Of a stretch of 64,000 nucleotides of DNA, positions 14,300 through 58,330 are shown one piece after another; position 1 is the stretch's first letter; each line of letters starts with the position of its first letter. The notes below the pieces were generated by a model. It was given only the letters and a program-made list of their open reading frames with translations, had not been told where the DNA came from and ran no database searches. A program made the translations under genes and the position numbers. The DNA lies in contig OZ024743.1 in the NCBI GenBank assembly GCA_964016885.1, forward strand, positions 355,384,001 to 355,448,000. Reading direction: 5' to 3'. Source of the DNA: Eledone cirrhosa (taxonomy: Eukaryota).

Positions 14300-14493
14300 A
14301 ACGAAGGAAATGTGGTAAGGAACCAGGTGGACCATAACGCACCAAAGTACTCAATACTTAGGGTAGTAGAGTGGGTAATAGGAATGAGTAGGACCCCGAC
14401 GGCTGAGCTCAAGCCGTTTTGACGGCTAATTCTGGACATAATTAGACGTCGAAACGGCTTGAGCTCAGCCGTCGGGGTCCTACACATTCCTAT
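14300..14493 (-). mobile_element. Fold-back PLE-type end, family A: hairpin 14378-14493 plus a 78-nt tail
   Basis: Arms GGACCCCGACGGCTGAGCTCAAGCCGTTT and its reverse complement. Other copies at 21560-21748, 43379-43582 and 45842-45901. Confidence 0.9.
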
Positions 14494-14791
14494 ATATATA
14501 TATATATATATATATATATATATATATATATATATATATATATATATATATATAGAGAGAGAGAGAGAGAGAGAGAGAGAGAGAGAGAGAGAGAGAAAAT
14601 TGAGGTTGGTAATGGAATATATAAGAGACAGAATACTTTTTTGTGAAAAAACATATAATTTTATAAGGTAAGGAAAGAATAAAGGGTATAAAAAATGACC
14701 GGTTTCGATGGGTCTGCAAAAGCCATCTTTTCAAATGTTGATTCATATTAAGAAAAATTAATAAGAAGAGTTAAAATTTGAGATTTGAAAA

Positions 14792-17700
14792 CCTCAACAA
14801 AGCTGGAATTTACCAGAAATGGATTAACTCAACACCGATAGTTTTACCATGTAAATTCCAAATAAAGCATATTACAAACGAACCTGAACCAGAAAGAAAA
14901 GTCCGTGAACAAATGTCACTCAACAGGATAAACATGGAAATAGAACTCCTAAAATTAAGGGCCACCTCCAACGAGCAAGATTATAAGGATACTGATAAAA
15001 ATATGGAGGAAGAATGCACTAAAAAGGCCGAGGGAACAACCCTACAAAATTTAATCAAATCGTGGAAACAGGACTGCGAGAATGCAGAAATTATTTCCCT
15101 TAAACGGTGGGAAAAATCCGAAAACTGGTTCCTCAAATATGAAGAAGACTTTAAAAGGACGCACCAAACAGGTAACCCCTTTATAAAGCATTTGAACATA
15201 ACAAGAACTACAACAGACACATTTACACCACCAAACCAAACACACACTAACCACAGGCACATCCCCCACCAAGACAAACCAAATACGGCCAACTACACCA
15301 AAAGAAACACACCCAACCACCACAACACAAGTTTCCGTAGAAATACCTCCTACATAAACCAACGACGAAATAACATAGATCCAACTCACAACACACACAC
15401 CACATTCCTCAGAAGAAATCCACCCAGACCACTTGAAATCACAACAGAACTTACCCACAACCACACCAGACATCACCCTCAATCCAACAAAAGACAACCC
15501 CCCAACCTCAACACTCTGTACCACAGAAATAACGCACCCAGACCACATGAACCAACAACAGAACCCTTGCTCATTAACAACCACAACACATACCACCCCC
15601 ACCATCACATTCACCCTCATGAAACAACAAGCTACAGACCCACACGCAACAGACCCACAAAATATAATCACACACAAAACTACATTTCTTTTTTAGGGAA
15701 AAGCCTGAAATACCAGGATACTCGATCCCCCCCCCCCCCCTCAGGAGAAACCAAAAATAATCAACCTCTCAAAGACACCTCTAACCAACACACAAATCAA
15801 CATTTTAAGTAAGGGCCTGAAATTTACACCTACACCATGTAAACCAAACTTCCCCGAAATGAACGATGACATCATAGAATTCTGCCGAAAGCTGCGACTA
15901 ACGGAATTCTTCCACAACGACACCAACACTGAAGACGAATCACTGGTTAGAAATAAAATCAATTTCTGCCCACAAAAGGGAAGAAATAAAGCATTGGACA
16001 CGTACTGCGAACACATCACCAACTTTCCCTATGAAAAAATTACAAGTAAACACACGAAATCAAACCTATCTACACACGAATGGGAAGAATTATTCACACT
16101 TAGAAACAACCCTGAGATAACTATCAAAGAAGCCGATAAAGGCAGTACTGTTGTCATTATGAATACGGACTACTATAGGACCCTCGCACTTAACATTTTA
16201 GAAAACAACACATACTATGAAAAAACAGAAAACTACAAACACACCAAAACAATGGGGAACCTTTTGACCTTACTGAATAAATACCGCAACAGCTTAACCA
16301 CAAAAGAGTTTAACTATATAACCCACTTCAAATGCAATACAAGCTCTTTTTACGGCTTACCGAAACTCCACAAATGTAAACCCATAAACGATACATGTGA
16401 CACCTCAACCAACAATTACATTGAACTAACACCACCAGAAGACCTAAAACTCAGGCCAATTATAGCAGGCCCTACATGTGAAACCCACAGACTTAGCAAC
16501 TTTCTGGACATCCTACTGAAACCCTTTCTACAACATATACAGAGCTACATACGAGATGACCTTGACATGCTGAAACACCTCCCTAAAACAGTAAGTGAAA
16601 ATACAATTCTTGTCTCCTTTGACGTAATAAACCTCTACACAAACATACCACACAACTATGGAATAACAGCAGTCCAATACTGGCTGAACACACACCCATC
16701 AGAAATACCGACACGCATCAACAAAGATTTTATCACTGACACATTCAATGGTTCAACATACAGACAAGTATCAGGTACTGCAATGGGCACGAAAGTAGCA
16801 CCCACATATGCCAACCTAGTCATGGGATTCCATGAACAACAAATATACAGTCAGTCCCTCTCTTATTTGGAGACTCTTTCCACACACACCTCAAAGCCAA
16901 TTGGAAAAGATATCTAGACGACTGCTTTATCCTATGGCAAGAAGACATGAACTCACTTACTATGTTTAAAAACATGATAAACAACATAGATAATAACATA
17001 CAATTCACAATGGAATCCAATCCCAAGGAATTAGCCTTCTTGGATTTTCTCATCTCTAATAGACGGGAAATTAGATACAGATATATTCTATAAACCCACA
17101 GATTCCAAGCAATACCTCTTTTTCACATCAAGTCACCCAAAACATACAAAACTTAACATTCCTTACAATTTGGCCAAACGTATATGTACCATAGTATCAG
17201 ATCCACCTAAACGGGAGCAAAGACTAAAGGAACTAAAAGACACCCTTATCTTAAGAGCCTTTCCACTTGAAATAATCAACAATGGAATAGACAGGGCAAA
17301 ACACCTAAATCCCCATCAACTTAACAATCCAAAACAGAAAACCACACTCAACACCCTGCTATATGTATCCACTTTCAACCCCAGAAATACCGAAATGTTT
17401 GATCACCTACACAAAAACCTCCCCATCCTACTTAAAGATGTAAAAATGAAGTCTATTCTTGAAACACACAAGATCCTTAAAAGTAAAAGACAACCCAAAT
17501 CACTAAAACGCATTCTCACTGGACCAAATATACCCAAACCAACCCTCAACCCTACAGTTACCAAATGTGGTAGAACAAACTGTGGAACGTGCCTCTACCT
17601 CACTGAAGGACAAAAATTTACATTTAAAGATGGCCAAACATTTACAGTAAAAAACAATTTCACCTGCAACTCGGAGAACTTGATTTACGCAATAACTTGC

Positions 17701-17959
17701 GATGGGTGCAAACACAACTACATAGGACAGACGGGCACCTCATTACGCAAAAGAATGACCATCCACCGCCAACAAATCCGGGACGCTAACACAAGAAAAA
17801 TCCCCTTGAGCAGCCATATTGCGAACTGCGCAGGAATGACACTACCCAACTTTAAAATCTTCCCCTTCTACAAGTGCTCAGATTCGTTCACACAGCAACA
17901 AAGAAAATCTATTCCTTAACAAATTTAAACCAAAACTAAACGGGTTATCACCCCAATAG
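14792..17959 (+). pseudogene. Disrupted PLE ORF (N-terminal region, reverse transcriptase, thumb, Cys linker, GIY-YIG endonuclease)
   Basis: ORF pieces 14778-15812, 15859-16917 and 17170-17919 join through frameshifts (poly-C ~15730, ~16860, ~17050, ~17900). Confidence 0.9.
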
Positions 17960-19207
17960 AATTGTCATAAAATATAAACACACATACGCACGGAGTGACA
18001 GATACGTGTGTGTATGTGTGCATGTATATAATTATCACTACTATTAAAGACCAGAGACCAATTCTGTAGAATCAGGTTTATTCGTTGACAGACCATGCCT
18101 TTGTGTGACCAACACATCCATGTTAAACCCTGCACGTGCACACACATATATCTATATATATATATGCGCACACAGAATTCACCACTGTCGGTTGCGGGGT
18201 CCAATCTACATGAAGAACTCAATGTGATCAGAATGACTTGTATTTTAATTTCACTGTTCTAACTTCTCATATTATGGAAAAAATATGTGTATGTATGTAT
18301 ATATGTATATTTGGAGGCCATTTCTCTATATGTGTGGGTGTATGTATGTGTATGTGTGTGTGTGTGTATGTGTGTGCATATGGATGTATGTATGTGTATG
18401 TATGTGTGTGTGTGTGTGTGTGTATGTGTGTATCTGGATGTATGTGTATGTATATATATGTGTGTGTGTGTGTATATATATGTGTGTGTATGTGTATATA
18501 TGTGTGTGTGTGTTTGTATGTGTGTATGTATATATGTGTGTGTGTATGTATGTGTCTGTGTGTATATATATATATATGTATATATGTGTATGTACATATA
18601 TATATATATATGTGTGTATGTATGTGTGTGTGTGTGTATGTATGTGTGTATCTGGATGTATGTGTATGTATATATATGTGTGTGTGTGTATATATATGTG
18701 TGTGTGTGTATATATATATGTGTGTGTATGTGTGTATGTATATGTATGTGTGTGTGTATGTATGCGTGTGTGTATATATATATATATATATATATATATA
18801 TATATATATATATATATATATGTATGTATATGTATATGTATATGTATGTGTGTGTGGATTTGGGTATATGTGTATATATAGGTGTAAGTGCACTAAATCC
18901 CTTTCTATCAATCTCCCCTCTCCTACCGACCACATGGAGATATATGTATGTATATTGCTTCCACCCCCTCACTGACCAGCAGCTGGCCATCTGGCCATTG
19001 CTAAATCTGACCTTTTAAAAAAAAAACTTTTTTAAAAACCACTCCCCACAAATAATTCCTCATTCACTGCCAGAAAGGGACACACAGCAGTCAACTTGCT
19101 GCTACCAAGATGAAAACCACTATGAAATCCCACACTGAATTTTATACTTGAATTTTCAAATCTCAAATTTTAACTCTTCTTATTATTAATTTTTCTTAAT
19201 ATTAATC

Positions 19208-57087: not shown

Positions 57088-57340
57088 TACAATATTAAAT
57101 AAATGGAAAACTATATTTATAAAACCATATTTATTTCATTATATATATTTCGGGGATATCATATTAACAATATGCTATGCCTTCATCCCGAAATATATAT
57201 AATGAAATAAATATGGTTTTATAAATATAGTTTTCCATTTATTTAATATTGTAAATATACTCCAAGTATTTGTCGAGTGCTTTTATATCAGTTATAAATA
57301 TTTACTAGTTGTAACCCAACAATTTTAAATATAACTTTAC
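57088..57340. mobile_element. Fold-back of the 20908 family (inverted repeat 57088-57253) turning inside the HHR, plus an ~87-nt tail
   Basis: Junction reads ...GCCTTC-ATCCC-GAAATATATAT. Confidence 0.9.
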
Positions 57341-57611
57341 ATATATATATATATATATATATATATATATATATATACACCTACATATAGGGGTAAAAAC
57401 CACCTTCGGTCACGAATGACCATGGGATTTGCATCTAGAAAGTTTCCCTCCGAAGCACAAGTCCAGGTAAGATTGTCTTATATATATATATATATATATA
57501 TATATATATATATATATATATATATATATAGTCAAAAGTTAAACAAGGTTCATTGATTAATCAATGAATCAATGAATATAGTTTTACAATAGATTAAAAG
57601 CACTCAACAAT

Positions 57612-57760
57612 GAAGTTTTCTGGGAAGTTTTCAGGGAAGTTTTCAGGGAAGTTTTCAGGGAAGTTTTCAGGGAAGTTTTCAGGGAAGTTTTCAGATAAAA
57701 TAAATTGATGGTTCAATTCCAGTCTTGGCAGTCACTGTCAAGACTGGAATTGAACCATCA
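57612..57760. repeat. 12-bp tandem (GGGAAGTTTTCA) x~7 followed by a 22-bp-arm hairpin (57706-57760)
   Basis: Seen directly. Confidence 0.9.
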
Positions 57761-57969
57761 GCACAGTTGAGGTATGTCAGACATCAATTTATTTTATCTG
57801 ATGGGGACGTACTGAGGAAACAGCACAGTACCTCTGAATATATATAATAAAATATATTTGATCACATGAATGTCTATATTTATTAATATTTTGAATTAAT
57901 ATATATATATATATATATATAAATATATATATATGTATATTTATTAAAATAACAAATATATATATATGT

Positions 57970-58330
57970 ATATTTATTAAAATAACAGGTTAAAGTTTAA
58001 GCAAAGAATCGCTGCTTTCACCCTAACGGGATCTTCTGCAACTAAAAATATCAATTATCTTCGCTTTTTTCCGTTCATTGCCAGAGAACGTCTTCACGAA
58101 CCAAAGTATATTCTTCCTGTTTTCCTTCCGTTGCAACGTTACTTCTGCGTTCACAGATTGATTTTTTTAGTTTCGGAAGATCCCGTTAAGGGTGAAAGCA
58201 GCGATTCTTTGCTTTAACTTTAATCTGTTATTTTAATAAATATTTGCTCTTGGGTTCTTATATATTTGATATATATTGATCCTTATCGAGCCCTCTTTGG
58301 ATTTTAGTTTTCGAATTTATTATTATTATT
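57970..58330. mobile_element. Spaced fold-back of the CAGAAGA-HHR pLTR family
   Basis: 57970-58048 is inverted relative to 58165-58243, with an ~80-nt tail. Confidence 0.85.

Follow-up and report, generated by a model that had tools for sequence, protein, structure and literature searches.

Introduction

What sets the two ends of a fold-back insertion when one arm runs on into a tail and the other stops short of it? The question is raised by a 64,000-nt window of the Eledone cirrhosa genome (3.0 Gb; contig OZ024743.1, positions 355,384,001 to 355,448,000), which has a GC content of 34% and is dense in (TA)n tracts. The fold-backs in question derive from four Penelope-like retroelements (PLEs) of the Hydra clade; the copies are inserted in (TA)n, truncated at the 5' end and arranged head to head. 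Both of their outer ends lie a few nucleotides from copies of one hairpin, and judging from the genomic copies it is likely that each hairpin positions one reverse transcriptase (RT) that primes on one strand of the cut (TA)n tract.

The excerpted text of PMC8557442 (Craig et al. 2021) describes PLEs as leaving inverted truncated copies, often with a 30-40-bp tail at one end only, and as having a bias towards (TA)n. In vitro work on a PLE of the anole showed that its enzyme cuts both strands, extends both and starts at two internal sites, the tail being the distance that separates them (PMC11167929). The origin of tailed, inverted PLE insertions is stated as open in both papers, in the former as far as the excerpt goes. 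The original prediction, made from the window alone, was that two priming sites on one RNA are used by both strands of a cut TA tract.

Results

Two fixed ends, one long and one short

The four fold-back families were named A (short end TTCCTAT), B, C and D, with one real copy serving as reference for each; references A and B end at the tail end, while references C and D extend approximately 100 nt beyond it. Ends were counted in 112 merged stretches totalling 1,654,720 bases, made up of ~1.35 Mb of stretches together with 3-kb loci from pattern searches. Eleven large blocks, one of which contains the window, account for 1,244,000 of these bases; block C1 5.0-5.1 Mb was chosen where pattern matches had already been listed and the large blocks are thus not strictly blind. 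Among 382 matches to the family references, 321 terminated in a TA tract. Two sharp peaks of arm ends had been expected rather than a continuous random spread, and 291 of the 321 ends in this 1.65 Mb sample indeed lay no more than 5 nt from one of the family's two modes, 214 of them exactly on it. The claim that short arms stop at the same base within a family held as a sharp mode per family but not to the nucleotide, as families C and D have short-end sub-peaks 2-5 nt apart; these would fit a short primer hybrid with a mismatch. No TA-terminated ends were found past the tail end in the extended references of families C and D. A rare third end was seen at locus L265, where a family A copy ends inside hairpin 2 (see below) and is followed by (TA)n.

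When outward-facing ends within 6 kb were paired, 87 of 90 classifiable insertions had one long and one short end, two had two long ends and one had two short ends. Six pairs with an off-peak end were set apart from the 90, and 118 unpaired ends and six pairs with an internal TA tract (four long-short, one long-long and one with an off-peak end) were left out. Family A loci were partly chosen by the tail pattern, but the long-short share was 54/56 in families B-D, which were selected by a pattern common to both arms, and 32/33 in the large blocks. Exact genome-wide counts for family A were 24,950 for the short end followed by TA, 24,283 for the same 23-nt stem followed by the tail and 32,823 for the long end followed by TA. 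The family A tail itself occurs 37,221 times, and arms of B, C and D occur 17,491, 28,271 and 23,403 times, respectively.

Tails measure 80, 89, 86 and 88 nt in families A-D. In a de novo search 157 fold-backs were detected in 1264 TA-bounded segments; 24 with tails under 25 nt were dropped and the remaining 133 (tails of 25-190 nt) formed 43 clusters. A tail of 75-87 nt had been proposed as a fixed feature. This is correct at the sites originally listed but is not universal, since tails range from 32 to 180 nt over the 43 clusters and the window itself has tails of 39 nt (19358-19396) and 49 nt (52337-52385). The predicted microhomology to (TA)n was upheld: the short end overlaps the TA tract by at least 3 nt in 29/43 clusters, against a mean of 5.9 and a maximum of 15 for random joints in 2000 trials, and each of the four long sites has TAT or CAT at its end.

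Of the 87 long-short pairs, 64 had a clean inner junction and the other 23 were left out of the junction analysis. The short arm reached further upstream in 27 of the 64 and the long arm in 10, with the two stops no more than 10 nt apart in the other 27. In seven of these junctions the long arm ended within the tail, next to short arms of 30-358 nt, and some short arms carry an open reading frame (ORF) over 2 kb. Where the short arm is the further-reaching one or the long arm ends in the tail, the short arm cannot be a copy of the long complementary DNA (cDNA), which indicates that both arms are RNA-primed. At most inner junctions the arms share 0-4 nt or are separated by a few additional bases. 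In 19 of 24 family A insertions the two arms share a diagnostic stretch marking their subtype (4.4 on shuffling), which is consistent with, though not proof of, a single RNA. The two peaks, the 87/90 long-short pairs, the TA overlap, the independent arm lengths and the matching subtypes all fit the proposal of two fixed start sites, one for each side of a cut TA tract. The proposal also has an in vitro precedent in the anole PLE (PMC11167929).

Paired hairpins at the proposed start sites

Both outer ends lie 2-7 nt upstream of a copy of one hairpin, which comprises RCUC, a variable upper stem, a two-base bulge (YN), GAGY and, often, RCU, and which starts many of the tails. The end-to-hairpin spacing is 5/3, 5/7, 2/3 and 4/6 nt in families A-D. 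The spacing between the two hairpins (78, 91, 87 and 90 nt) matches the tail length of the respective family within 2 nt. In tandem junctions of families C and D the second copy (hairpin 2) comes right after the long end. This led to the prediction of hairpin 2 in A and B, for which only its 5' half was used in the search; the 3' half, outside the search pattern, was found in 10/12 A and 12/12 B loci, followed by the ATG. The order in the parent unit is accordingly 3' untranslated region (UTR) with hammerhead motif, short site, hairpin 1, long site, hairpin 2 and ATG. As the template runs on past both start sites, through hairpin 2 and into the ORF, both start sites are internal.

The association extends beyond the four families. 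Among 34 clusters with tails of at least 62 nt, 21 have the hairpin no more than 16 nt from the short end (shuffles 0.06, maximum 2). In hairpins picked by sequence only (25/43 clusters), pairing is seen in 68 of 75 upper-stem cells (shuffles 47.2, maximum 59 in 5000). Covarying swaps occur at the first pair (A-U/G-C, 13/10), the second pair (C-G/U-A, 21/2) and the first upper pair (C-G/U-A, 6/17). Minimum-energy folds recovered the hairpins only in part and the hammerheads not at all.

In a metagenome scan six related loci were detected, of which only contig L285 spans both leader and 3' end; its element, 38% identical, has one hairpin before the ORF and one after a hammerhead-like motif. No hairpin could be placed in the other five loci, which are truncated. 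Scans of viral and prokaryote contigs gave no relatives among 66 and 77 candidates. By eye, the exact hairpin is present in three of the six Hydra consensi of Craig et al. (Hydra-2_Amil, Hydra-1_Ajap and Hydra-2_Ajap) and variants in the other three (PMC8557442); in Hydra-1_Ajap it occurs twice, 62 nt apart. The hairpin thus appears to be present across phyla. We found no published description of it: the words hairpin and stem-loop are absent from the excerpted supplement text of PMC8557442, although it may yet be drawn in figures or in the GenBank supplement of PMC11167929.

The parent elements

Longer copies in all four families carry, between their paired ends, an ORF with RT and a putative C-terminal nuclease. 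The families had been called unrelated; this does not hold, as the proteins of the other families are 42-55% identical to that of family D. All four have YRDD and SDKT motifs, with RWR in A, B and C and RWT/RWI in D. The proteins have a CxCX5C linker and no CX2-5CxxC, the putative nuclease is without CCHH, and CxxC and CxH stand beside conserved E and N (by pattern in C and D, by eye in A and B). According to the excerpted text of PMC8557442, Hydra-clade elements are marked by an RWK motif, a change of DKG to DKT, the CxCX5C linker, CxxC and CxH, no CX2-5CxxC or CCHH and insertion in (TA)n. We assign the elements to this clade because the RW, DKT, CxCX5C, CxxC and CxH motifs are present and CCHH is absent. 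Our initial label, the Poseidon clade, was rejected after this motif test. A structure model of the 717-aa ORF of family A has a predicted local distance difference test (pLDDT) score of 94, and its best fold match in the PDB is the telomerase RT 3du5 (E 9e-9). A GIY-YIG-like pattern is seen by eye in the ORFs of all four families, on which a Pfam search gave no match.

Hammerhead cores, found by eye and by pattern, lie just upstream of the short site in A, B and D and in degenerate form in C; the Rfam search at gathering score returned no hammerhead or other match. That of family A is of the U3-A8 variant, a type described in the excerpted text of PMC4209133. The family C core reads CAGAAGA, not CTGANGA (49037-49061, 7389-7413 and 58015-58038 in the window), and may be inactive, though there are ~28,000 arm copies.

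The layout is partly tandem and partly inverted, with tandem junctions, 3,531-nt tandem units and inverted truncated copies. Two loci, L291 (G000:C1:437.20 Mb) and L293 (C1:91.48 Mb), hold arrays of four tandem family A units of ~3.53 kb each, and the L291 units have intact 717-aa ORFs; both arrays are candidate source loci.

An inner stop shared by the arms

Upstream, the arms pile up at a family-specific inner position, at ~55-66 nt in A, 66-78 nt in C and 167-168 nt in D. In family D, 19 of the 44 arms that reach the inner base stop exactly there, and an untemplated G precedes the stop in 7 of 14 unambiguous arms (p ~0.005). By eye, among 100 family D rows, 55 read through, 15 have overlapping arms and 14 of the other 30 show the G (one of them explained by the other arm). 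The stop contexts are similar to an initiator consensus (TTAGT in A and C, TCATAT in D). It is established that RT adds an extra G opposite an RNA cap. Because D arms share one stop and carry the untemplated G, we infer that the stubs of 150-450 bp may be run-off copies of the element's own capped mRNA leader. An internal promoter resides in the pseudo-long terminal repeat (pLTR) of Penelope, according to the excerpted text of PMC2377424.

A solo element would have no hairpin 2 at its 3' end if that hairpin is never copied, and long copies would therefore need tandem read-through or circles; circles are proposed in the excerpted text of PMC4209133. Short partial tandems were seen at three loci (L263, L264 and L269), in which the unit continues beyond hairpin 2 and then begins anew from the inner stop base, as would follow from a template jump to the RNA 5' end.

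Features in the window

The seven tails and eight short-arm ends of the original prediction were all located where it had placed them, within 1-2 nt. Family A contributes three fold-backs. That at 14300-14493 has its long arm on the minus strand, with the tail at 14300-14377 and hairpin 1 at 14346-14372, and its short arm at 14440-14493 on the plus strand. That at 21560-21748, also of minus orientation, has the tail at 21560-21637, hairpin 1 at 21606-21632 (minus) and the short-arm end at 21748 (plus). The third (43379-43582, plus) has a short arm ending at 43379 (minus), the tail at 43508-43582 and a decayed hairpin 1 at ~43513-43539. The family D fold-back at 20492-20866 (plus) has a short arm (20492-20661, minus) that stops at the shared inner base, hammerhead cores at 20545-20592 (minus) and 20680-20727 (plus), its tail at 20781-20866 and hairpin 1 at 20785-20812. 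Family B has two, both of plus orientation: at 20908-21349, with the short arm from 20908 (minus), hammerhead cores at 20966-21008 (minus) and 21161-21203 (plus), the tail at 21262-21347 and hairpin 1 at 21267-21289; and at 57088-57343, with the short arm from 57088 (minus), the tail at 57254-57340 and hairpin 1 at 57259-57281. In the family C fold-back (57970-58330, plus) the short arm starts from 57970 (minus) and hairpin 1 is at 58246-58294; its tail at 58244-58330 is positioned as predicted but is followed from 58331 by another repeat, not by TA.

Two of the predicted short-arm ends are likewise correctly positioned but do not belong to compact fold-backs. Position 45901 is the end of a lone family A short arm (45839-45901, plus), while 51090 is the short end (51090/51091, plus) of a 2.2-kb family C insertion (48904-51091) whose long end, its partner, is at 48904 (minus). 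There is also a lone family D short arm at 51252-51418 (minus). Two tailed long arms of plus orientation were absent from the original list: a B-like one at 36817-36976 (hairpin 1 at 36893-36914) and one of family C at 7381-7576 (hairpin 1 at 7491-7541). Further hairpin copies occur in other fold-back families of the window, at 5394-5422, 8701-8720, 25632-25677, 30073-30111 and 31938-31965.

A near-full Neptune-like PLE at 14596-19396 has RT and GIY-YIG by Pfam, a broken ORF and a CX4CxxC linker; it too has one short and one long end, with the 39-nt tail at 19358-19396 and without the Hydra hairpin. Its short arm ends in TTTTCTCT and is joined to an (AG)21 tract abutting (TA)n (14554-14596, a single copy), which could be due to template slippage or later expansion. 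A second, truncated Neptune-like copy lies upstream at 10928-12914. Clusters with tails of 32-49 nt (e.g. 52337-52385) are without the Hydra hairpin, and some share other motifs after the short end (ACAATGC..CAAG; GCTATTTCAGAGC), which are possibly clade-specific counterparts of the hairpin; one short-tailed insertion has a weak Neptune-like match.

The window also holds a 596-nt repeat in two copies, 98.5% identical, in opposite orientation and 40 kb apart (22207-22802 and 62198-62793), and an array at 23814-25094 of 21.5 copies of a 59-60-nt unit with 94% matches. An abundant dispersed repeat with internal tandem units, similar to short interspersed nuclear elements, is found at 55265-55817, 58331-58654, 59276-59572, 33229-33575, 34559-34723 and 44948-45308; the copy at 58331 directly adjoins the family C tail.

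Discussion

We favor a scenario in which the endonuclease would cut both strands within (TA)n while hairpins 1 and 2 hold two enzymes, probably a dimer. Each 3' DNA end would anneal, over 2-6 bases, to the UA-rich sequence immediately 5' of a hairpin, and both cDNAs would extend toward the RNA 5' end, hairpin 1 being copied once, which makes the tail equal to the hairpin spacing, and hairpin 2 never. Microhomology, or the addition of a few bases, would then serve to join the two cDNA ends head to head. The common stubs would be run-off copies of a short capped leader of the element's mRNA, and kilobase copies would come from tandem read-through or circular RNA in which the whole unit precedes the hairpins. 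The complete account, in which a duplicated, phylum-spanning hairpin docks a dimeric telomerase-like RT, one capped RNA primes both break ends, the tail equals the hairpin spacing, mini fold-backs are leader run-off and productive jumps go via tandem or circular RNA, is tentative, and somewhat more apt to need revision than to stand whole. If true, it would explain in full how PLE insertions come to be inverted and tailed, and the hairpin would be a compact cis signal for a telomerase-related RT writing on both strands of a microsatellite break. With a short RNA element repeated at a set distance from each start, and with the near-strict long-short rule, PLE end formation becomes testable by simple mutation.

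Several observations weigh against this scenario, which is read entirely from genomic copies. There were 118 unpaired ends, six pairs with an off-peak end and three long-long or short-short pairs. The structural matcher, which was written after the motif had been seen, misses 13 of the 34 long-tailed clusters, and in a few clusters the short end lies 12-15 nt from the hairpin. None of the nine clusters with tails under 62 nt has the hairpin, yet they too are one-sided, so asymmetry does not need this hairpin. Since the clusters are kin, the covariation shuffles overstate their independence. Only family D shows the G clearly; in family A the signal is mingled with bases that belong to the other arm (by eye, the non-T rows have G 14, C 13 and A 4). 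The anole element in vitro has no strand difference in start site and no target homology (PMC11167929). Finally, the scenario has one stretch of a single RNA copied by two enzymes, which would need strand displacement.

This last difficulty would be avoided if two separate RNAs, or ribonucleoproteins, served the two DNA ends and the asymmetry came from protein or from first- versus second-strand steps rather than from two hairpins on one molecule. Independent arm lengths and the rare long-long and short-short pairs fit such a route. However, a free choice of site would make half of the insertions long-long or short-short, where we observed 3 of 90, and the arms match in subtype far more often than in shuffles (19/24 versus 4.4), although subfamily waves or later conversion could also yield such a match. 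We consider two RNAs unlikely. It is less likely again that the ends are made by cutting, either by RNA processing beside the hairpins or by an endonuclease that resolves an intermediate at the tail. The latter is the earlier explanation, Craig et al. regarding endonuclease-mediated resolution as the most likely source of the tail in the excerpted text of PMC8557442, and a conserved hairpin could equally be a nuclease signal. Against this, the TA overlap above chance points to primer pairing, and initiation in the anole element is internal and independent of the RNA 3' end (PMC11167929). Hammerhead cleavage as the source of the ends was rejected: in A-D the cut falls 20, 53, 36 and 48 nt before the short end is reached and sets neither end.

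In 27/64 clean junctions the arms end no more than 10 nt apart, many of these being near-perfect palindromes, and arms share a subtype. This is what would be expected if there were a single priming at the long site, after which the cDNA snapped back, was copied to the short site and joined the other DNA end. A shared stop accounts for the symmetric cases, though, and in another 27 of the 64 junctions the short arm has sequence absent from the long arm. The seven long arms that end in the tail beside short arms of 30-358 nt, and the short arms with an ORF over 2 kb, are equally at odds with snap-back. It is contradicted as a general route and we give it little chance, although it could hold for a minority of insertions. 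Assembly artefact or later decay of symmetric palindromes is scarcely credible. Palindromes beside microsatellites are hard to assemble, but there are tens of thousands of exact copies, which refutes this explanation, and decay would not halt at one base; in addition, loose TA ends lie at these two bases (L291:4816 and 4896) in contigs from a public sequencing run (X1, possibly of the source sample).

How much of this is already described for related elements? Elements of the Hydra clade, in the excerpted text of PMC8557442, share the single ORF with RT and (here putative) nuclease, the motifs, the hammerhead, the (TA)n target, inverted 5'-truncated copies, a tail at one end and, by eye, the hairpin in the consensi. 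They differ in that the tail is 30-40 bp there and 80-89 nt here (62-180 in related clusters), and units are generally <3 kb there and 3.3-3.7 kb here; the hairpins and the one-long-one-short rule are without description in that text. The 30-40 bp figure is descriptive and comes from other clades, and a tail of 80-89 nt leaves PLE membership unaffected. The excerpted text of a retrozyme preprint (10.64898/2026.07.22.740005) does not treat ends or tails.

PAc, a Poseidon element of Anolis carolinensis (Frangieh et al. 2024, PMC11167929), also cuts and extends both strands at an AT-rich target from two internal starts spaced by the tail, without a need for hammerhead cleavage; a dimer is predicted, and PAc needs RNA 3' of the start sites (to +172). 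In contrast to the elements studied here it belongs to another clade, has a tail of 30-40 nt and has its start sites in the ORF, not in the leader. Its starts are not target-homologous and do not differ between strands, and no repeated hairpin is described in the main text or methods of the paper. By eye, the printed PAc template is without the RCUC/GAGY motif and has another bulged hairpin at ~+121 to +147, just after the distal start. Most of the pattern is accounted for by PLE biology already in print, which includes the element class, the tail and the pair of start sites, and the longer tail is a clade variant; as far as our searches reach, the repeated hairpin at both starts, the near-strict one-long-one-short rule and the run-off signal go beyond the published record.

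In twin priming by L1, two target strands prime two cDNAs and the resulting inversion is joined by microhomology; priming takes place at the poly(A) end on one side and at a variable site on the other, and neither piece repeats the other's sequence. The originally proposed likeness to twin priming stands insofar as both strands of a cut TA tract would prime. Here, unlike in L1, the two sites are fixed internal ones, and in most junctions the arms overlap, usually as copies of the same stretch. In telomerase RNA, the template boundary element is a protein-bound stem that fixes which RNA bases meet the DNA primer; it lies 5' of the template and stops copying. By contrast, the PLE hairpins are found on the 3' side of the start and would determine where copying begins. 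The likeness is by analogy; the closest solved fold to the element's own protein is that of a telomerase RT.

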